A stretch of 64,000 bases of DNA, taken from assembly GCF_024298765.1 (NCBI RefSeq), contig NZ_CP101210.1; one strand, 5' to 3'. Shown here in pieces: positions 1 through 51,557 of this stretch (position 1 is the stretch's first letter; every line of letters starts with the position of its first letter). The notes below the pieces were generated by a model, which did not search any database, was not told the DNA's origin, and saw nothing but the letters and a program-made list of their open reading frames with translations. Origin of the DNA: Escherichia coli (GTDB lineage Bacteria > Pseudomonadota > Gammaproteobacteria > Enterobacterales > Enterobacteriaceae). A program made the position numbers and the translations under genes.

Positions 1-92
1 GTGCAACATCGTGGTCCAACATACGTAAACCAGTATCGACAGGCAGTGTAAGGGTAAGGTGCTGGTGTTGCGCTCCTTAATAAGGAGAGCGG

Positions 93-182
93 ATGGACAC
101 GCTGACACAAAAGTTAACCGTGCTCATTGCTGTACTGGAGCTATTAGTGGCTCTGTTACGGTTGATTGATTTGTTGAAGTAA
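93..182 (+). CDS. 29-aa hydrophobic type I toxin-like peptide (ZorO/ZorP-like), copy 1
   Basis: ATG at 93 preceded by RBS AGGAGAG; translation MDTLTQKLTVLIAVLELLVALLRLIDLLK; single predicted TM helix; long leader; hairpin 206-225 downstream. Family assignment from memory of the EHEC zor-orz locus. Confidence 0.6.
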   Translation: MDTLTQKLTVLIAVLELLVALLRLIDLLK

Positions 183-205
183 CGGGCAAATTGAAACGCA
201 TCTAA

Positions 206-235
206 GGGGGAAAACCGCTTCCCCCTTTAATAAAA
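206..235 (+). terminator. Stem-loop (GGGGGAA/TTCCCCC) with short T-tract after peptide copy 1
   Basis: Perfect 7-bp inverted repeat 206-212/219-225, loop AACCGC, followed by TTTAATAAAA. Confidence 0.5.
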
Positions 236-379
236 TGATTACTGTTTTTATTAATTCATCATATAACTCATTTTTATTTATAAATTCATCGATTTTATAT
301 TCAACGCACCATTTGACCGGGATGTGAATATTTATGGTGGGCTATTGGCAAAAAATATCTGGAAAGTAGATCGCAGAAA

Positions 380-462
380 ATAAAAAAACCTGCTGGTGAG
401 GCAGGTTCTTTTATTTACTACTTTGATGTTAAGTTACTGATAGTGCAACATGGCATCTCAAC
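380..462 (-). ncRNA. Candidate antisense antitoxin sRNA (Orz-like), about 83 nt
   Basis: Minus-strand sigma70-like promoter (TTGCAA-17-TATAAT; -10 at plus coordinates 469-474), and an intrinsic terminator (hairpin 388-407 then T-run on the minus strand). The 5' part is complementary, with mismatches, to the motif GTGCAACATGGC...CTCAAC.AACG found in both peptide leaders (1-25, 607-631). Confidence 0.5.
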
Positions 463-468
463 GAACGA

Positions 469-519
469 ATTATAACCACCTCTGGACAGTGTTGCAATTA
501 AGATAATGAGATTTATAAT
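469..519. promoter_or_regulatory. Back-to-back sigma70-like promoters sharing one palindromic -35 (TTGCAA at 492-497)
   Basis: Plus strand: TTGCAA(492-497)-16 nt-TATAAT(514-519), predicted TSS near 527, giving a ~174-nt leader before the ATG at 701. Minus strand: same TTGCAA, 17-nt spacer, TATAAT (469-474 read on the minus strand). Confidence 0.5.
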
Positions 520-700
520 CCTGACTGTTGGGAAGTTGCGCCGGATCGAACCCATTTCAAGTCCTGGCTACCGGACGGGTGGTGCCGCAGGTAGTGCTCT
601 GATCCGGAGTGCAACATGGCGACTCAACAAACGTAAACCAGTATCGACAGGCAGTGTAAGGGTAAGGTGCTGGTGTTGCGCTCCTTAATAAGGAGAGCGG

Positions 701-790
701 ATGGACACGCTGACACAAAAGTTAACCGTGCTCATTGCCGTACTGGAGCTATTAGTGTCTCTGTTACGGTTGATTGATTTGTTGAAGTAA
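701..790 (+). CDS. 29-aa hydrophobic type I toxin-like peptide (ZorO/ZorP-like), copy 2
   Basis: Translation MDTLTQKLTVLIAVLELLVSLLRLIDLLK, one A>S change versus copy 1; same RBS and the same downstream hairpin at 814-833. The listed 60-aa ORF 506-688 is a frame artefact of the leader. Confidence 0.6.
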   Translation: MDTLTQKLTVLIAVLELLVSLLRLIDLLK

Positions 791-813
791 TGGGCAAATT
801 GAAACGCAACTAA

Positions 814-836
814 GGGGGAAAACCGCTTCCCCCTTT
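814..836 (+). terminator. Stem-loop after peptide copy 2
   Basis: Same GGGGGAA/TTCCCCC hairpin as at 206-225. Confidence 0.5.
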
Positions 837-842
837 AATAAA

Positions 843-1163
843 CTAATATTCTATTAGTTGGTTGAATATATTCTGTAGTTCACGATTAAAAATTGCTATT
901 ACAGTTTCAGGTGATTCACCTCGTAATTTCCGCTCATCAATACACTCATCTCTTATATAAATCAACGCATCATTTATTAGCGGGTCAGCATCTTCTCGAT
1001 CACGTTGATGAAATGTTGGACGTAGCCGGAATCGCTCCAGTCGATAGACGGAACCTGTAAATAATTCAGAGCATTTATGGATCTCAAGTCTGAAGGAAAA
1101 CGGATCTTCAGGTACAGGGACCTCATAATCGTAAATAGCAACCAGCTCTTTTTGCACGATCAT
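843..1163 (-). CDS. yehK: YehK, small uncharacterised protein
   Basis: 106-aa ORF; recalled as YehK from its position downstream of yehI and its length. Confidence 0.7.
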   Translation of the reverse strand: MIVQKELVAIYDYEVPVPEDPFSFRLEIHKCSELFTGSVYRLERFRLRPTFHQRDREDADPLINDALIYIRDECIDERKLRGESPETVIAIFNRELQNIFNQLIEY

Positions 1164-1223
1164 CGCTTTCCCCGCTGGTAAGTCGTGTTGATAACGGGCA
1201 GTTGCATCACTGCCCGCTGTGTT

Positions 1224-4200
1224 TTAATGGAAAATGACGTCAGGTGCGCTTAACGCCTCACTCAAATCAAACACATCAAGTTCGGCAAAAGTGACGGATT
1301 TATTGTCACTGTACACTCGAAGAGAACGGAAGCTCATTAGCGCTTTGCTATCAACATTGTAGTGGTTAAAACCGGGTGAAAACTTAAGGACCAGCCGGTA
1401 CTCACCCAGGTCATAGACAAATGCGTCCTCATAGCCTGACTCCCAGCCTTTGTATCGCATTCCCATAAGTTGCCCAACGGTAGCAGATTTACCTTCCCAG
1501 CGATTCAAACTATTACTGGCTGACTCGTCAGGCGTGAGCAGCACCGTGCGCCGTGTCAACTGGCGAAGTGGCGGTATAATTTCGTAATCGGCAAAAAGCT
1601 GGGCAAATTCACTGCGCATTTCTGCTGTCATTTCTAACGGGTGGGCAATGCCAATCAGAGCATCCGCAGGCAGGTCAATTGGCTCATCCTGCGCATTGCA
1701 GAACTCCCCCTCTGCGGCCACACGAAAGGCGTTGAGTAAACGACGCGGTTCATTTGCCGGATACACGCCCCATATGAATCGCTGGGTAACCAGGCGGGTA
1801 AAGGGATGATTAACAAACAGAGTATGAAAATCTGCCAGCGACCAGCGTCGGGTGGTACGTAGGGCAGCTTCAAGACGCGGGAGCAGGTTTTTGCTCACCT
1901 GAGTAGCATCTTTTTTTAGCCCTTTTAGTCGGGCCAGTGCCTCGGGCGCTTTCAGTTGATCGTCATCGGCGCGCAACCGGGGAACGCTTTTCTGGCGAAC
2001 GTTTTGCTGATCAAAGATAACCGGGTTGAGGTTTTCATCGAAGCGAACGGTAAACTGCCGGGGACCAAAATCAAAACTCAACGCCTGCGGATCATCAAGG
2101 CCCAGGGTTGGGACTAATCTGTCCGCTAGCTCTTCCTGGCTTAGCCCGCGATTTTCTGCGACCACCTGAAGAAATTCCGCCGCGTTATCACGTAAGGGGC
2201 GGGATTTAGCCCGTTGCGATATATGATGCAGCTGTATCAGCGCCATATCATTATTCATCAGGGTAAGGATGTTCAGGCCGCTGACAGCACGGGCAGATTT
2301 GCCTTCTTGTGGCCAGGCGAGGATCTGTGTCGTCAGATCCCGTGCCGTGCTTTCGTCACCAAAGAGACTTAACGCCAGAAATGCCCAGTTGTCTTTTGCG
2401 GGGGCACCAGCTTGTTGCCACGCAGTGAAGAGATCCCAGGCAAAAGCTGCCAGCGTTTGTGGCTGGCAGAACGTTTTCAGTTGTTCCAGCCCGCTATAAA
2501 AACGTCCCCCCTGGGTAAAGCGCAGCATTTCGCCGATAATTTCCAGAGCGTCACCGGTAACAGGCTGATTATTAGTGATAAGTCGAGGCCTGGACCACAT
2601 TGCCGGATGCCAGAAATCAGGGGCTTTTGGAATGCGTGCCGGGTAAATGTCCATTGGACCCTGTTTAAGCAACTGCTCCAGGGCAGACCATACATCTGTA
2701 CGCTGCCAGCGGTTTGCCACGGTTTGTAGCAATTCGCCATGTCCCTGTTCGTACAGTAAACGCAGGGCAAGTAATGCGGCTTCGCTATTATCGCTGGGTT
2801 TGGTAAAGACAAGAGGGATAAGTGCACTAGCCGTATGTTCCGGCCATTGTAAAATCCACTGGCGAGCCAGATCACGCTGCGCCGCGAAACGTCGCCAGAC
2901 GCGGGCAACAGGCAGCGCCAGTTCTGTTGCGCCAAAATTTAAAATTAACGGAAATGTTTCTTTTGGACGATGTGAAAAAGCCAACAGCAGACCTGGTAGC
3001 GCATCCAATCCGAGGATACTGAGAAAATAGTCCTCACCCGCGAACAGATGCTTTTTCTCAATGATACGCAGCCAGAAGGTCAAAGCCATCTCACGCGGCA
3101 ACTGTGCCAATAAATACAGGTTCCAGACACTCTTTTCCGGACGATAACGTGAGAAGTTGTCATTTTCCCATATGTTAATTAACGCTTCTATGTGACCGCT
3201 GCGGAGCGCCTGTTCTGCTAATTGTGCTTGCGGGGAGTTCCAGCCATTCAGGATCTCTTCAACCCGCCCCTGGTAGTAATGCCACTGAACAATGAGTGAA
3301 TTGCGTGCAGCATCCAGTTTTCCGGGGAGTATATAATTCAGAAACAGCCATACATCATCCCCAAAACCCAGTTCCTGTAATACAACTCGTCCACTTTTTT
3401 GTTCCATGCGTTCCGCAAGAGATTCCGTGCTGAAATAACGGGCAGACTCAGTGGCGGCAAGCCTCTCTTGTTCGCCTGGTTGCCAGTAAATTTGCGGAGT
3501 TAATTCGAGCGGTGCCAAATCAAGACGTGGAGCTGTCATTTTTTTCTTACTACGCCACGGTGGTGAAACGAGCATTTCAGGCAGACTGCTGTTATCGGTG
3601 CTATCAATAACCGGTTTTGGCGGTGCCGATAAATAACTATTCAGCACTGCCCTGGCTTGAGTACTTAACCACGGCATCACCCTTTCTGCTAGTTGTGGCT
3701 GCGATGCTATCAGCGTTTGTAACAGCGTACGCCAGTATTCATCGCGTGCTTTTTGCTGTGCAGGCAGCTTTTTGTCTTCGATGATTGGATAACCTGGGCG
3801 GGCTGGTGGTTCTTTTAACGCCAGCAGTTCTGCCAGTGCGGCGAGTGTCGCATGGGGGAAGTTTTTACTGTATTTAGCCACACGTTGCAGGCTGGGTTTG
3901 TTTTTATCAGCAACTAACAGCAAGGTGCGGATGACTTGCGGATGGTTAATTTGTACCAGCAGACTGCCGCAATCTTCTTTATGGGCATATATCGCGAGGC
4001 GCGGAACGGCTGCCAGTCCTTGTTCGCGCAAAAGGGCGGCGCAGGCCGCGTAGCCGAAGTGGTTTTCATGCGACATGTAGCTGGCTTCTCGATCGCTAAA
4101 TACGTCCAGGCCCCAGCATCGTTCGAGTTTTTTTACCGCCGTATTATCAGTAGCAATGACCTTTAACCACTCCTTTGAATGGAGACTTGACCGGGAGCTT

Positions 4201-4856
4201 TCAAGACTGGCGAGTTCATTGGCTATTTCAGGTTTTTCCGGGAGGAGTAGTGCAATAAAAGGACGGCGAATTTTGGGTATTCCTGGCAGTGCGGCAATGA
4301 GTTTGTCGGCGCAACGCTGCCAGCTGCTTTCCTCTGCCAGAGAGAGATGCTTACGCAGTCGGAGATCGAATTCGTTATAGGTTTCTGAGCGATAACCATA
4401 GCCATAATCCTCGTCCTGATACTGCAATGTCACTAGCAGAGGATCACTCTCATAACATCGTGTAATAAACTGGCGTGCAATCACCACCTCAGTCGCATAT
4501 TCCAGCCCCTCTTGTTGGACGATTTCGTCGAGCAACTGTTGGCTGTCCTTTTGCGCGATACAGGCTAGCACCGCCATTGTGCGGGCCGGGACTGAGGGTT
4601 TGTGTTCGCCGATCAAGTTGATGGCCTGCGTAATGGCGGACTGCCACTCCAGTGAAAAATTTTCATAACGCCAGACAATGTTTTTTTTCTTCTCAGCTTT
4701 TTGTAGCAATTCATCACCCAGTGTCTGAATGATGCTTTCAGTGATAACAGGCACCGGTTCGCCCGGCCAATTGCGATGGCTGAGTGGTGTTTTGCCTTTT
4801 TTATATTTCAGTTCCAGTTGAGCGTTATCCGCCAGCCACGGTAATTCCTTGTCCAT
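1224..4856 (-). CDS. yehI: YehI, large DUF4132-family protein (1210 aa), paralog of MolR without the N-terminal WGR region
   Basis: 1210-aa ORF; long blocks near-identical to the upstream ORF (e.g. FDLRLRKHLSLAEES...LIALLLPEKPEIA); 9-bp gap to molR suggests an operon. Confidence 0.85.
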   Translation of the reverse strand: MDKELPWLADNAQLELKYKKGKTPLSHRNWPGEPVPVITESIIQTLGDELLQKAEKKKNIVWRYENFSLEWQSAITQAINLIGEHKPSVPARTMAVLACIAQKDSQQLLDEIVQQEGLEYATEVVIARQFITRCYESDPLLVTLQYQDEDYGYGYRSETYNEFDLRLRKHLSLAEESSWQRCADKLIAALPGIPKIRRPFIALLLPEKPEIANELASLESSRSSLHSKEWLKVIATDNTAVKKLERCWGLDVFSDREASYMSHENHFGYAACAALLREQGLAAVPRLAIYAHKEDCGSLLVQINHPQVIRTLLLVADKNKPSLQRVAKYSKNFPHATLAALAELLALKEPPARPGYPIIEDKKLPAQQKARDEYWRTLLQTLIASQPQLAERVMPWLSTQARAVLNSYLSAPPKPVIDSTDNSSLPEMLVSPPWRSKKKMTAPRLDLAPLELTPQIYWQPGEQERLAATESARYFSTESLAERMEQKSGRVVLQELGFGDDVWLFLNYILPGKLDAARNSLIVQWHYYQGRVEEILNGWNSPQAQLAEQALRSGHIEALINIWENDNFSRYRPEKSVWNLYLLAQLPREMALTFWLRIIEKKHLFAGEDYFLSILGLDALPGLLLAFSHRPKETFPLILNFGATELALPVARVWRRFAAQRDLARQWILQWPEHTASALIPLVFTKPSDNSEAALLALRLLYEQGHGELLQTVANRWQRTDVWSALEQLLKQGPMDIYPARIPKAPDFWHPAMWSRPRLITNNQPVTGDALEIIGEMLRFTQGGRFYSGLEQLKTFCQPQTLAAFAWDLFTAWQQAGAPAKDNWAFLALSLFGDESTARDLTTQILAWPQEGKSARAVSGLNILTLMNNDMALIQLHHISQRAKSRPLRDNAAEFLQVVAENRGLSQEELADRLVPTLGLDDPQALSFDFGPRQFTVRFDENLNPVIFDQQNVRQKSVPRLRADDDQLKAPEALARLKGLKKDATQVSKNLLPRLEAALRTTRRWSLADFHTLFVNHPFTRLVTQRFIWGVYPANEPRRLLNAFRVAAEGEFCNAQDEPIDLPADALIGIAHPLEMTAEMRSEFAQLFADYEIIPPLRQLTRRTVLLTPDESASNSLNRWEGKSATVGQLMGMRYKGWESGYEDAFVYDLGEYRLVLKFSPGFNHYNVDSKALMSFRSLRVYSDNKSVTFAELDVFDLSEALSAPDVIFH

Positions 4857-4865
4857 GCTCTTTCC

Positions 4866-7800
4866 TTATTCAAACAGGGCTTCAATATCGTTAATTAGCT
4901 CGCTGGCGGTGATGGCATCGAGTACGGAGAACTGCGCTTCCTGTGTTGAATTACTCCCCCAGCCATAGCTTTCTGCTTTGCCTTCCCATAGCCACAGCTT
5001 GCTTAAGAGCTGCTCGGCACTCAGTTCGGCTGGCGACATGCCTACCGCAAAACCTTCGTCGATTTCCATGATTAACGACCAGCGACCGAGAGGTTTGATC
5101 ATCCAGCCGATCCAGCCTCCATCCTGCGGGGTGCCCTTTATCCAGCCTTTATTCGCCAGCCCCATGACCCGACCGCTCGGGCATTTTCTGCCTGCCCAGC
5201 GGGTCAGTTCGCTGGCGTTGCGCTCGGCTTCTGTCAGGGCGTAACTGTTACGGTCAAGCTGACGGAACGGTGGTAGCAGTTCGTAGTCGGCAAAAAGCTG
5301 ACCAAAGGCGGCAGCATCCGTCGGTGATATTTCCAGAACGTGAGGAATGCCAACAGAGATATCGCCTTCCGGCAGGGTGAAAAGATCATCGTCAGCGGTG
5401 CTGTAGCTGTTATCTTCCGCCACGCGGAAGCACGTCAGTAGCTGGTTTTCGGTGCTATAAACGCCCCAAATCAGACGGCGGGTTAAGTGGCGTACCAGTG
5501 GATGTTCAACCAGGAAGAGCTGAAAGTTTTCTGGCGACCAGCGGCGACGCAGGCACATGGCGGATTCCAGCCTTGCTACCTGCTGGGCGGCGACGGTACG
5601 CGCATCTTTTTTCAGCAGTTTGTAGCGGTTAACAGCATCGTTCGCCTGTGATTCATCATCGCTTTTGTTTGGTTTGGGCAGGTCTTTCAGACGGCTGCCG
5701 GAAGCGTCACGCACAAACGGTTTTAAGGTTTCATCAAAGCTGACGGTGAACTGGCGTGGGCCGAAATCCAGCAGCAACGAACCGTTATCATCCAGACCGA
5801 GATCTGGTGCTAACCGATCTTCAAGCTCCGCCACTGTCAGTTCGCGACTTTCGGCAATGTCGGCAATTTTCTCTTTCGCCCGCTCCTGTAATGCTTTGAA
5901 TTTCAGTTTCTGGGCAATGCCGTTAAGCTGCATCAGGGCTATATCACTACCGATAGCGGCGAGAATATCCAACCCAACGGTGGCGCGTTTATGCTGAGAT
6001 TCGCCAGGCCAGGCGCGGATTAATGGCGTCAGTTTGCGGGCGGTGTCATCGTTACCGAGAACGCCTAACGCAGTGAACGCCCAACTCTCTCTCGACGGCG
6101 CGCCAGCGGTCTGCCAGGCGGTAAACAGATCCCAGGCAAATTCAGCCAGTGAGTCGGCGGTACAGGCATCTTTCACCTGCAATAATCCCGGATACAGAGC
6201 CTCTTCCTGAGGGAAGCGGAGCATTTCGCCGAGGTGGAGGAGGGCGCTATCTGGCAGTGATTGGGCGTTTGCTTTTAATACCGGGCGCGTCCAGAGCGAT
6301 GGCTGATAAAAGGCCGGAAGAGTGGGGATTTTTGTCGGGTGATTATCTAAGGGATCGAGCGCAAGCAGAGCGTTCACCGCGTCGGTTACTTCCGGCTGGT
6401 TATAACGCCGGGCGATTTCTTGCAGTAATGGCTGATGACCGTTTTCGCTAAGCATACGCAAGGCAGCGCGGGCGTTATCCTGAGCTTCATCGGCTTTGCC
6501 GAGCGCAGCAGGCAGCAGGCCGGTAATGGCGTGTTCCGGGTATTTCAGCAGCCAGCTACGGGCGTCTTGTCGTAGAGTTTTGAGTTTGTTGAAGGCGCGG
6601 GCGACGGCAGGTGCCAGCTCACTCGCTGCGAAGTAATTCGTGATGGGCAAGGCTTCCTGTGGATAGCGTGCAAGTGAGTTTACTAACCCAGGTAACCCTT
6701 TGAGTCCAAAATGTAACATGGCGTATTCGGTATCGGTATGTGGAGATAGGGTAAGGGCATTCCATGCTTTTACTGCTTTCTCCAGCGGCAATGTTGTCAA
6801 AATCCCCAACTGCCAATAATGCCCGGTAGGTGAATGAAACACCTTAAATTCACTTAGTAAGGTTGAATAATCTTCATTTAGCCATGCCTCAACTACCGCT
6901 TCGGGAGCTTTAATATATGTACCAGCGATCCGTCGTTGAAAACCCATTCTTGCCAACAGGTTGGCAGTACTTTCTTCATGGCTAACCGTGATGTGTTTTG
7001 AATACCAGATATATTTCGCCAAAAGTTGATTACTGATTTCTTCTGTCAGATAACAGATTGGCTCAATGCCTAATGGCGCTAACTCCAGCACCGGAATCGT
7101 CGCTTTTTTCTTTTTCGAAAGCCATGGTGGGGAGACTACTATGGCAGGCAGTAGATCGGCGCAGGCATGGTTTGAGGGCTGTGTCAGTTGTTGCTGGCAT
7201 GATTTCAGTACGGCAACTGCGGGTGTCGAGAGCCAGGGAATGACCTGTTCTGCCAGTGCTGGTTGTGAGATAAGCATTGTCATTAGCATAATGCGCCAAC
7301 TGTTCTCTTCTTTTTGCCCAAGAAGTTCCGTCAGTGCCGCCATTGCTGCATGTGGGAACGCAGCAATGGCTTTCGTCATCCGATCGTGACAGCGTTTAGT
7401 TTGCCCGGCTACACGTATAAGCAGTGTCAATGCGAACGGATGATTGATATGACGCAACACATCGGCGCAGTAGTCACTTGCGGCATAGGGAGCAAATCGG
7501 GGCAGGGCTGCAACACCTTGCTCCTGTAATACGGTGGCTGACCATATCGCACCACAATAGTAATCATCAAAAATGGCATATGGCTCGTGATATTTTTCTA
7601 ATGAGGCAAGAATGTGCTCATCAGTCGCCACTATTTTTAACCACTCAAGCGAGGGTAATTTTTTTTGCCCCAGTAGACGCTGGGCAATTTCATGTGCAAT
7701 TTCTGGTTTTTCGGGTAATAACAAAGCAATTAATGGTTGCCGCCATTCTGGAATATGTGGAATTGCGGCAATAAGTTTTTGTGTACATTTTTGCCAGAGA

Positions 7801-19689: not shown

Positions 19690-19832
19690 TTATCATCGCA
19701 ACCAAACGACTCGGGGTGCCCTTCTGCGTGAAGGCTGAGAAATACCCGTATCACCTGATCTGGATAATGCCAGCGTAGGGAAGTCACGGACCACCAGGTC
19801 ATTGCTTCTTCACGTTATGGCAGGAGCAAACT
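19690..19832 (+). ncRNA. TPP riboswitch (thi-box) in the thiM leader
   Basis: Conserved thi-box core CTGAGA within GGGGTGCCCTTCTGCGTGAAGGCTGAGAAATACCCGTATCACCTGATCTGGATAATGCCAGCGTAGGGAAG, directly upstream of thiM. Confidence 0.9.
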
Positions 19833-27644: not shown

Positions 27645-27766
27645 ACCCCGTAGGACGGATAAGGCGTTTACGCTGCATCCGGCAACCTATGCCTGATGCG
27701 ACGCTGAAGCGTCTTATCATGCCTACATAGCACTGCCACGTATGTTTACACCGCATCCGGCATAAA
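27645..27766. repeat. REP/BIME cluster (at least three REP units)
   Basis: Repeated REP-like palindromes GTAGGACGGATAAGGCG / GCATCCGGCA / GCCTGATGCGACGCTG / CCGCATCCGGCA. Confidence 0.8.
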
Positions 27767-36039: not shown

Positions 36040-36126
36040 AAAAAATAAGCCCGTGTAAGGGAGATTACACAGGCTAAGGAGGTGGTTCCTGGTACAGCTA
36101 GCATTTTATGGGTTATGTTTTTCAGC
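36040..36126 (-). ncRNA. cyaR: CyaR (RyeE) Hfq-dependent sRNA
   Basis: Minus-strand sequence GCTGAAAAACATAACCCATAAAATGCTAGCTGTACCAGGAACCACCTCCTTAGCCTGTGTAATCTCCCTTACACGGGCTTATTTTTTT matches the CyaR sequence as I remember it, including the terminator; lies immediately downstream of yegQ. Confidence 0.85.
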
Positions 36127-36160
36127 GAAACGGATGATAACCTTAATAAATGCAGCTGTA

Positions 36161-49444: not shown

Positions 49445-49590
49445 CGGATGCTGAAACGGGAAAGCCCCTCCCGAGGAAGGGGCCTTAAATAAGGAAAGGG
49501 TCATGATGAAGCTACTCATCATCGTGGTGCTCTTAGTCATAAGCTTCCCCGCTTACTAAGACTACCAGGGCGGGGGAAACCCCGCTCTAC
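49445..49590 (-). ncRNA. sibB: SibB-like antisense sRNA (antitoxin of ibsB)
   Basis: Minus-strand promoter TTGACA-17-TACTTT downstream of the ibsB stop, and hairpin GCCCCT...AGGGGC at about 49465-49485 as terminator; fully overlaps ibsB. Ends are approximate. Confidence 0.5.
49503..49559 (+). CDS. ibsB: Ibs type I toxin peptide (18 aa)
   Basis: RBS AAGGAAAGGG then ATGATG...; translation MMKLLIIVVLLVISFPAY. Confidence 0.75.
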   Translation: MMKLLIIVVLLVISFPAY

Positions 49591-49847
49591 CCTCACTCCT
49601 GAAAGTATGCCTTCACGATAAGATTGTCAATCCGCAGGCTTTGTAGTCTGCGATCCTGCCAGCAAATATTCTTTGCGAGTCGTTACGCAATAATCACAGA
49701 GGAAACTATTTTATTCACGCGTTAGCGATAGACTGCATTCAGGGCGAAAGGAGGTAAGCCGATGATTTCAGCGGGACGCTGAAACGGGAAAGCCTCTCCC
49801 TGTACTGCACCCATTTTGTTGGACGATGAAATGGAATAGCCCCTAAT

Positions 49848-50369
49848 ATGTCAAAGCCAAAATACCCTTTTGAAAAGCGCCTTGAAGTCGTGAATCACTA
49901 CTTCACAACTGATGATGGTTACAGGATCATCTCGGCACGTTTTGGTGTCCCCCGAACCCAGGTCAGGACATGGGTTGCCCTCTATGAAAAACATGGAGAA
50001 AAAGGTTTAATTCCCAAACCTAAAGGCGTTAGTGCTGATCCAGAGTTGCGTATTAAGGTCGTGAAAGCTGTGATCGAGCAGCACATGTCCCTTAATCAGG
50101 CTGCTGCTCACTTTATGCTTGCTGGTAGTGGTTCTGTAGCCAGGTGGCTGAAGGTCTATGAAGAGCGCGGAGAAGCTGGTTTACGCGCGCTCAAGATTGG
50201 CACCAAAAGAAACATTGCAATATCAGTTGATCCAGAAAAAGCGGCATCAGCATTGGAGCTGTCAAAAGACCGACGCATTGAGGATCTTGAAAGGCAAGTT
50301 CGATTTCTTGAAACGCGGCTTGTGTATCTAAAAAAGCTGAAAGCCTTAGCTCATCCCACGAAAAAGTGA
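49848..50369 (+). CDS. insJ: IS150 OrfA (InsJ) transposase DNA-binding subunit
   Basis: 173 aa, HTH-containing IS3-family OrfA. Confidence 0.9.
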   Translation: MSKPKYPFEKRLEVVNHYFTTDDGYRIISARFGVPRTQVRTWVALYEKHGEKGLIPKPKGVSADPELRIKVVKAVIEQHMSLNQAAAHFMLAGSGSVARWLKVYEERGEAGLRALKIGTKRNIAISVDPEKAASALELSKDRRIEDLERQVRFLETRLVYLKKLKALAHPTKK

Positions 50370-51217
50370 AAGTACTCAACGAGCTAAGGCAGTTTTATCC
50401 TCTTGATGAGCTTCTCAGGGCTGCGGAGATACCGCGCAGTACGTTTTATTACCATCTAAAGGCTCTCAGCAAGCCTGACAAGTATGCGGACGTTAAAAAG
50501 CGTATTGGTGAGATTTATCATGAGAATAGAGGCCGATACGGATACCGTAGGGTAACGCTGTCTCTTCATCGAGAAGGGAAACAGATTAACCATAAAGCTG
50601 TTCAGCGCCTGATGGGAATCCTCTCACTGAAGGCAGCGATTAAGGTCAAGCGATACCGCTCTTACAGAGGAGAGGTAGGGCAAACCGCCCCCAATGTTCT
50701 CCAAAGAGATTTCAAGGCTACGCGGCCAAACGAGAAGTGGGTTACCGATGTTACTGAATTTGCAGTCAATGGGCGCAAGCTGTATTTGTCTCCAGTAATA
50801 GATCTCTTCAACAACGAAGTTATTTCTTACAGCCTTTCGGAAAGACCAGTGATGAACATGGTCGAGAATATGCTCGATCAGGCATTCAAAAAGCTTAATC
50901 CTCACGAGCATCCTGTTCTGCACTCTGACCAGGGATGGCAGTATCGTATGAGAAGATATCAAAATATCCTTAAAGAACATGGTATTAAACAAAGCATGTC
51001 CAGAAAAGGCAATTGTCTGGATAATGCTGTGGTGGAGTGTTTCTTTGGAACCTTAAAGTCGGAGTGTTTTTATCTTGATGAGTTCAGTAATATAAGCGAG
51101 CTGAAGGATGCTGTTACGGAATATATTGAATACTACAACAGCAGAAGAATTAGCCTGAAATTAAAAGGTCTGACTCCAATTGAATATCGGAATCAGACCT
51201 ATATGCCTCGTGTTTAA
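50366..51217 (+). CDS. insK: IS150 OrfB (InsK) transposase catalytic subunit (DDE)
   Basis: 283 aa, DDE/integrase core; normally expressed as an OrfAB fusion by -1 frameshifting. Confidence 0.9.
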
Positions 51218-51243
51218 CTGTCCAACTTTTTGGGGTCAGTACA

Positions 51244-51400
51244 CCCGGAGAAGAGGGCTTTTAATAAGGAAAGGGTTATGATGAAGCACGTCATCATACT
51301 GGTGATACTCTTAGTGATTAGCTTCCAGGCTTACTAAGAACACCAGGGGGAGGGGGAAACCTCTCCCTAACCCTCACTCCTGAAATTATGTCACTCCGCC
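51244..51400 (-). ncRNA. sibA: SibA-like antisense sRNA, 3' region interrupted by IS150
   Basis: Minus-strand promoter TTGACA-17-TAATTT downstream of the ibsA stop; its expected terminator (by comparison with the sibB copy) is where IS150 sits. Ends are approximate. Confidence 0.4.
51278..51337 (+). CDS. ibsA: Ibs type I toxin peptide (19 aa), separated from its native leader by IS150
   Basis: RBS AAGGAAAGGG then ATGATG...; translation MMKHVIILVILLVISFQAY. Confidence 0.7.
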   Translation: MMKHVIILVILLVISFQAY

Positions 51401-51557
51401 CTTAGTGTCAATCGACGGCTCTCCGTTCTTGCGAGGCGAATAGCAAAATTTTCTGCGCCGCCGGGCCTAATTCTGAAAGTTTCTTCGTTTGTTCTTATTT
51501 CATTATTGCAGTCGGTATGATACCGGACCTCAATAATTCTCTAAGAAAGGATTTCTT

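Follow-up and report, generated by a model that had tools for sequence, protein, structure and literature searches.

The yehL-yehK intergenic region of a non-K-12 Escherichia coli very probably holds part of the known tandem zor/orz toxin-antitoxin array, with a complete unit that fits the zorQ/orzQ class

The first 847 nucleotides of the window (the whole 64-kb stretch of E. coli DNA analysed here) correspond to the yehL-yehK intergenic region of non-K-12 E. coli and adjoin intact yehK (843-1163) and yehI (1224-4856) genes. Within it, 1-239 and 609-847 form a direct repeat, with 95% identity between the two 239-nt copies. The earlier note, which read the region as a Zor/Orz-like type I toxin-antitoxin locus, had placed two near-identical units at about 1-235 and 600-840, and only their limits needed adjustment. 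Each repeat carries a short ORF on the plus strand and a small RNA gene lies between them on the minus strand; the upstream unit is cut by the window edge and the downstream unit (382-847) is complete. The features are listed below, with plus-signed positions counted from the zor transcription start.

1-92, plus strand: 3' part of the zor 5' UTR of the upstream unit, a zorP-type leader beginning at about +83, with the Orz target at 1-20
82-87, plus strand: ribosome-binding site (RBS) AAGGAG of the upstream unit, from the sequence
93-182, plus strand: zor ORF of the upstream unit, 29 aa plus stop, peptide identical to ZorO (T3, A20)
204-227, plus strand: putative terminator hairpin of the upstream zor mRNA with a weak U-tract, UUUAAUAAA (-14.6 kcal/mol, z = -3.24)
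382-462, minus strand: orz sRNA, 81 nt, Q-type, 5'-GUUGAGAUGCCAUGUUGCACU... (Rfam RF02083 OrzO-P; start at 462 by homology)
469-474, minus strand: -10 hexamer TATAAT of the orz promoter (promoter scan; kept in 13/13 units)
492-497, both strands: palindromic -35 hexamer TTGCAA common to both divergent promoters, the same six bases being listed on both strands
514-519, plus strand: -10 hexamer TATAAT of the zor promoter (promoter scan; kept in 13/13 units)
527-700, plus strand: zor 5' UTR of the downstream unit, zorQ-type, 174 nt (start at 527 by homology)
599-628 (+73..+102), plus strand: EAP or putative ribosome-standby region (positions from PMC5397157)
606-611, plus strand: GGAGTG motif of the putative standby site (motif from PMC11264685)
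608-628 (+82..+102), plus strand: Orz target site, from its pairing with the sRNA
690-695 (+164..+169), plus strand: RBS AAGGAG of the downstream unit, inside a local hairpin in the minimum-free-energy (MFE) fold
701-790, plus strand: zor ORF of the downstream unit, 29 aa plus stop, ZorO with A20S (the ZorQ of the literature)
812-835, plus strand: putative terminator hairpin of the downstream zor mRNA (-14.6 kcal/mol, z = -3.26)

The two transcription starts, 462 and 527, were placed by homology; that of the sRNA was set 7 nt after the -10 hexamer and checked by the published V1 triplets at +9..+11.

One 29-aa peptide per unit, with an A/S variant, had been described from the sequence, and the ORFs at 93-182 and 701-790 do differ by A20S. 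The peptide from 93-182 (+), MDTLTQKLTVLIAVLELLVALLRLIDLLK, is identical to ZorO of O157:H7 Sakai at 29/29 residues, and that from 701-790 is the same peptide with A20S and matches at 28/29. Sakai belongs to the EDL933 lineage in which the system was defined. Both peptides fall within the known Zor set (the ZorO sequence or its T3S/A20S variants), and scanning both of them against NCBIfam returned no family match. The claim that both units end in the same hairpin stands as well, 204-227 and 812-835 being identical to each other; the consensus terminator scan did not call the hairpin at 204-227 on the plus strand.

Between the two copies, where a minus-strand unit of about 83 nt had been proposed, lies the 81-nt sRNA at 382-462. 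Rfam model RF02083 (OrzO-P) matches 382-455 (-) over its full length (model positions 1-76) with 91.7 bits against a gathering score of 60 (E = 5.9e-15). The sRNA folds at -20.8 kcal/mol (z = -3.45), its antisense seed comprises nucleotides +1..+21, and its terminator stem at 387-407 is followed by U7. Sub-threshold Rfam matches to ohsC, STnc370 and the Thr and Trp leaders were rejected as terminator-driven similarity; the ohsC model, for example, gave a weak 33.6 bits, below its gathering score of 50. That the sRNA has a near-consensus promoter and a strong terminator is borne out by this stem and U-tract and by a -35 TTGCAA separated by a 17-nt spacer from a -10 TATAAT. From the same -35, a 16-nt spacer leads to the -10 of the divergent zor promoter. 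All 13 units compared, from 10 genomes, have the same -35, the same two -10 hexamers and the same RBS. Divergent sRNA and toxin genes with conserved promoters, and an AAGGAG RBS after a 174-nt UTR, are among the features that define the Zor/Orz family.

It is vanishingly improbable that the repeats, short ORFs and complementarity arose by chance in an AT-rich intergenic region. ORFs of 29 aa are generally common, 25 of 20 aa or longer being listed for the opening 1.5 kb of the window, and nothing else speaks for such a reading; it is refuted by the Rfam match (E-value above), the repeat identity, the complete absence of seed-target matches in 100 shuffles of the window, and the literature, in which identical sequences have already been the subject of published experiments. 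The variable sites of the ORF across alleles (n = 5) likewise argue against chance, three being synonymous and two conservative (T/S, A/S).

The locus occupies the same yehK-yehL chromosomal slot as in O157:H7 Sakai, and this position between yehK and yehL is itself one of the defining features of the family. As far as features testable in silico can tell, the locus is a member of Zor/Orz, since all of them were found: the above-threshold OrzO-P match, the peptide identities to Sakai ZorO and the chromosomal slot, together with the gene arrangement described above and a 5' sRNA end complementary to the leader about 60 nt above the RBS. We therefore hold with high confidence that window 1-847 represents the yehK-proximal two-thirds of a tandem array of the known zor/orz type I toxin-antitoxin locus in E. 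coli, as the earlier note had proposed at the level of the family. Window 1-1200, which covers the yehL-yehK gap plus yehK, is 100% identical to many E. coli genomes. The same gap was compared from Sakai, MG1655 and E24377A; the last of these is identical to the window over 1-1200, departs beyond the first ~1.7 kb, and shows 71 mismatches within 1-5200. For several other E. coli genomes, a frameshift or an internal stop is flagged in the neighbouring genes (yehK in genomes L008 and L009; yehL and yehM in L011). Neither the zor ORFs nor the orz sRNA are annotated in the RefSeq records inspected (among them Sakai, E24377A and 30 spread matches), and for this reason the locus will keep being "rediscovered" by sequence scans.

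Assignment of the two units to alleles draws on the published V1 triplets, which are GAA in OrzO and ACG in OrzP (PMC3919570). The Sakai sRNAs reproduce both triplets, and Sakai thus carries orzP/zorP (peptide T3S) on the yehL side and orzO/zorO on the yehK side in the orientation of the window. In MG1655, a lone sRNA identical to Sakai OrzP was found. The earlier note had stated that K-12 MG1655 lacks the locus, and this has to be corrected, since an orphan orzP, published as OrzPmg (PMC11264685), is retained there.

The promoter and sRNA of the first unit, expected upstream of position 1, were located in a genome identical over window 1-1200. There, the missing promoter is found directly 5' together with the remainder of the leader (L001, 3887-4000), and a second orz sRNA lies directly upstream of position 1. 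Apart from 1 nt outside the seed, this off-window sRNA has the sequence of OrzP. It contains the letters GAA and was considered as OrzO; the assignment was rejected because V1 at +9..+11 reads ACG, the OrzP triplet. The target region of the upstream leader is identical to that of the Sakai zorP leader. To judge from these comparisons, the upstream unit is a zorP-type leader joined to a ZorO peptide (T3, not the S3 of ZorP), with its OrzP-like sRNA lying off the window.

In the complete unit, V1 of the sRNA reads GCC, neither GAA nor ACG. An O allele was ruled out for this sRNA by V1 (not GAA) and by its poor predicted pairing with zorO, the longest run against the Sakai zorO leader being 7 pairs at -19.1 kcal/mol. 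With a seed that is neither O nor P and a peptide carrying A20S, by which ZorQ is defined, unit 382-847 fits a third allele class, zorQ/orzQ, named in a 2024 mSystems survey (PMC11264685). The earlier match of the window to the zorO-orzO/zorP-orzP locus was thus right as to the family, although the two copies would be a zorP-type unit encoding the ZorO peptide and a zorQ/orzQ-type unit. The Q-type sRNA plus leader is at least 99% identical in ~788 of 5,426 complete E. coli genomes (~15%), with ~305 further complete genomes in the 95-99% band, and is 87-90% identical to the other types.

Pairing was judged by the published repression rule, under which a duplex needs either an unbroken run of 15 or more pairs or a total of 17 or more with a single internal mismatch. 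A 6(1)11 mutant of OrzO represses experimentally (PMC3919570). The in-window sRNA (+1..+21) pairs with 628..608 as 6(1)14, giving 20 pairs including one G.U at -37.5 kcal/mol, at a site 61 nt upstream of the RBS. At the DNA level, 608-628 has two mismatches to the sRNA seed; at the RNA level, one of the two is a G.U pair. The duplex therefore has an A-A mismatch at +7 and a G.U at +8, and because of these its longest uninterrupted run is 14 pairs, not 15. Against the upstream leader (1-20), the same sRNA forms a weaker duplex of 13 pairs at -25.7 kcal/mol. The 5' end of the sRNA had been described as antisense to both leaders; similarity exists at both sites, but only the downstream site satisfies the published pairing rule. 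In the comparison of O, P and Q types, all cognate sRNA/leader pairs pass the rule and all non-cognate pairs fail, with cognate duplexes at -31 to -34 kcal/mol and cross-type duplexes at -16 to -27.5 kcal/mol.

A comparison of the three types (13 units, 10 genomes) revealed compensatory double changes at +5, +6, +9, +10 and +11 of the seed, and the flanking seed-target pairs are invariant across the 13 units. Within the limits of sequence analysis, such changes are good evidence, and they support the view that cognate pairing is under selection. Since seeds and targets have changed together, the prediction is that each sRNA represses its own neighbour only; the in-window sRNA would repress the downstream copy and no other. 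This pattern suggests that allele divergence keeps the tandem copies from cross-talk, as is already in the literature for O and P. Seed position +7 (window 456) is mismatched in the natural cognate pairs of P, Q and Q' and fully paired in O only, where Q' denotes a fourth variant (E. coli BCE049) with the sRNA 5' end GUUGGGGCGCCAUGUUGCAU, a Q-type target and a ZorO peptide. A codon-degenerate Zor scan over one genome per species gave 3 matches, all of them representatives of other Escherichia species; no distant relatives for the co-variation analysis were among them.

The uninterrupted run of 14, just under the 15-nt continuous threshold, is one reason to consider that the locus is a genuine zor/orz relative that has decayed functionally, with a non-toxic A20S peptide or a non-repressing Q seed, and persists as a neutral remnant. 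Decay of the locus does occur, for in about 30% of E. coli the toxin gene is gone and orz alone remains (PMC11264685), and the searchable literature has the Q allele as a catalogue entry. Against this, the Q duplex satisfies the alternative rule of at least 17 pairs with one mismatch and is as stable as the O and P cognates, seed and target have co-varied, and A20S is conservative in a hydrophobic helix. Moreover, promoters, RBS, ORF length and terminators are intact and identical to those of functional alleles, and the Q allele is conserved at 99% or above in the ~788 complete genomes. Taken together, we consider decay highly improbable and a working toxin-antitoxin locus the better reading.

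A different question is whether the Orz sRNA has a second role, regulating other mRNAs in trans, that accounts for part of its retention. The authors of PMC11264685 raise this possibility themselves; in MG1655 and in about 30% of E. coli, orzP persists in the absence of zor, perfectly conserved and expressed. Yet no trans target has been reported, a search of the 64-kb window found no further seed-target match (21 nt, up to 3 mismatches), and the seed changes together with the leader beside it, an argument for the neighbour being the target under selection in the Q, P and O alleles. A trans role seems unlikely on this balance.

How repression of the neighbouring zor mRNA may work in the Q allele was reconstructed by homology, taking the experimentally characterised zorO-orzO as the model. 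The 174-nt UTR, the RBS (+164..+169) and the target (+82..+102) fall exactly where they were published for zorO (PMC5397157). The MFE fold of the full-length leader reproduces the RBS hairpin and pairs 541-548 (+15..+22) with 599-606 (+73..+80), a stretch reported to be protected in the full-length RNA only (PMC5397157). Whole-leader fold energies are indistinguishable from those of shuffled sequences (z = -1.6 and -1.7), and the MFE fold of the leader lacking its first 28 nt does not leave the EAP region open, this region being re-paired locally. Hence, only individual helices that agree with published probing data were used.

Each unit has two divergent sigma-70 promoters, one for a zor mRNA and one for an Orz sRNA of about 81 nt. 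The zor mRNA comprises the 174-nt leader, the ORF for a 29-aa alpha-helical inner-membrane toxin and a 3' hairpin. With the RBS presumably locked in its hairpin, the full-length mRNA would be poorly translated because +15..+22 pairs with +73..+80. Loss of the first 28 nt would open +73..+102, the probable ribosome standby site. There, the single-stranded 5' end of Orz may pair with +82..+102, and little toxin would be made because this pairing would block standby loading and trigger RNase III-dependent decay. Any Zor toxin that is produced would depolarise the membrane and deplete ATP. Toxicity, membrane localisation and depolarisation have been published for ZorO (PMC3919570, PMC9860968, PMC6669753), and the toxicity of the overproduced peptide, its rescue by the sRNA and a partial dependence on RNase III are published for zorO-orzO only (PMC3919570, PMC5397157). 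The Q allele appears in the searchable literature as catalogued bioinformatically only (PMC11264685), and by analogy we infer that ZorQ (A20S) is toxic and repressed by its Q-type sRNA.

Two further ideas are offered tentatively, and we would put them on the doubtful side. First, the Q pair may be a third fully orthogonal class, with no cross-repression by OrzP or OrzO, in which the +7 mismatch perhaps tunes repression. Second, the shared -35 may make initiation of toxin and antitoxin mutually exclusive; if so, it would couple zor and orz through RNA polymerase binding on one DNA molecule and add a layer of control. The one paper checked for promoter coupling (PMC3919570) does not mention the -35 palindrome.

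The window also holds a second type I toxin-antitoxin locus, ibs/sib. Rfam SIB_RNA matches at 49488-49630 (-) with 142 bits and at 51263-51411 (-) with 149.5 bits, and both matches are overlapped on the plus strand by ibs-like short ORFs, MMKLLIIVVLLVISFPAY and MMKHVIILVILLVISFQAY, as in the known ibs/sib pairs. Between the two Sib antitoxin RNAs sits an IS3-family element of 1,443 bp (49801-51243, in the context 49488-51411), flanked by a CCC/CCC duplication and with the ends TGTACTGCACCC... and ...GGGGTCAGTACA; its ORF 50366-51217 matches transpos_IS3 at 348 bits. The element lies inside the hairpin 'gaaagcctctccc | cccggagaagagggcttt', which belongs to the 3' end of the second Sib RNA and likewise to the 5' region of its ibs toxin gene, and because of this the locus looks IS-disrupted. 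Ordinary features of an E. coli chromosomal region include a TPP riboswitch at 19702-19798 (+) (71.2 bits), naRNA4 at 27653-27723 (+) (64.5 bits) and the CyaR sRNA at 36043-36128 (-) (100.7 bits). No tRNA genes were found within the 64-kb window.

The zor/orz locus of the window is nothing new in kind and has little discovery value, as publications from 2010 to 2024 already cover the family, how it works, which allele classes it has and where it occurs. The coordinates given here are usable as an annotation of the locus, and the natural co-variation of seed and target among O, P and Q provides a ready orthogonality series for testing rules of sRNA target discrimination.

Among known systems, the downstream unit stands closest to the zorQ/orzQ class (PMC11264685), with which it shares A20S, a seed that is neither O nor P, the yehK-yehL slot, the promoters, the 174-nt leader and the RBS; no difference was detected at the level of description given in that survey. 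With zorO-orzO of EDL933/Sakai (PMC3919570, PMC5397157), the window shares the Rfam family, the divergent sRNA, the UTR, the target position, the RBS hairpin and the yehK slot, and the ZorO peptide in full for the upstream unit and at all but one residue for the downstream unit. The difference lies in the seed, where OrzO reads GUUGGUACGAA at +5 to +11 and the in-window sRNA reads GUUGAGAUGCC, with the target changed to match; the O cognate duplex has 18 continuous pairs, whereas the Q duplex in the window has its internal +7 mismatch. OrzO is accordingly predicted not to repress the downstream leader, nor the in-window sRNA to repress zorO. Compared with zorP-orzP of EDL933/Sakai and OrzPmg of MG1655, the upstream unit has the target of Sakai zorP and encodes T3 where ZorP has S3, and the in-window sRNA is not OrzP. 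Beyond the family, the toxins and sRNAs of tisB/istR-1, shoB/ohsC and dinQ/agrB are unrelated in sequence to zor/orz. No LexA/SOS control of zor is known. These systems nevertheless resemble zor/orz in having an sRNA gene divergent from the toxin gene, a short pairing (~18-21 nt) far above a closed RBS, and a long processed 5' UTR with a probable ribosome standby site (PMC5397157).
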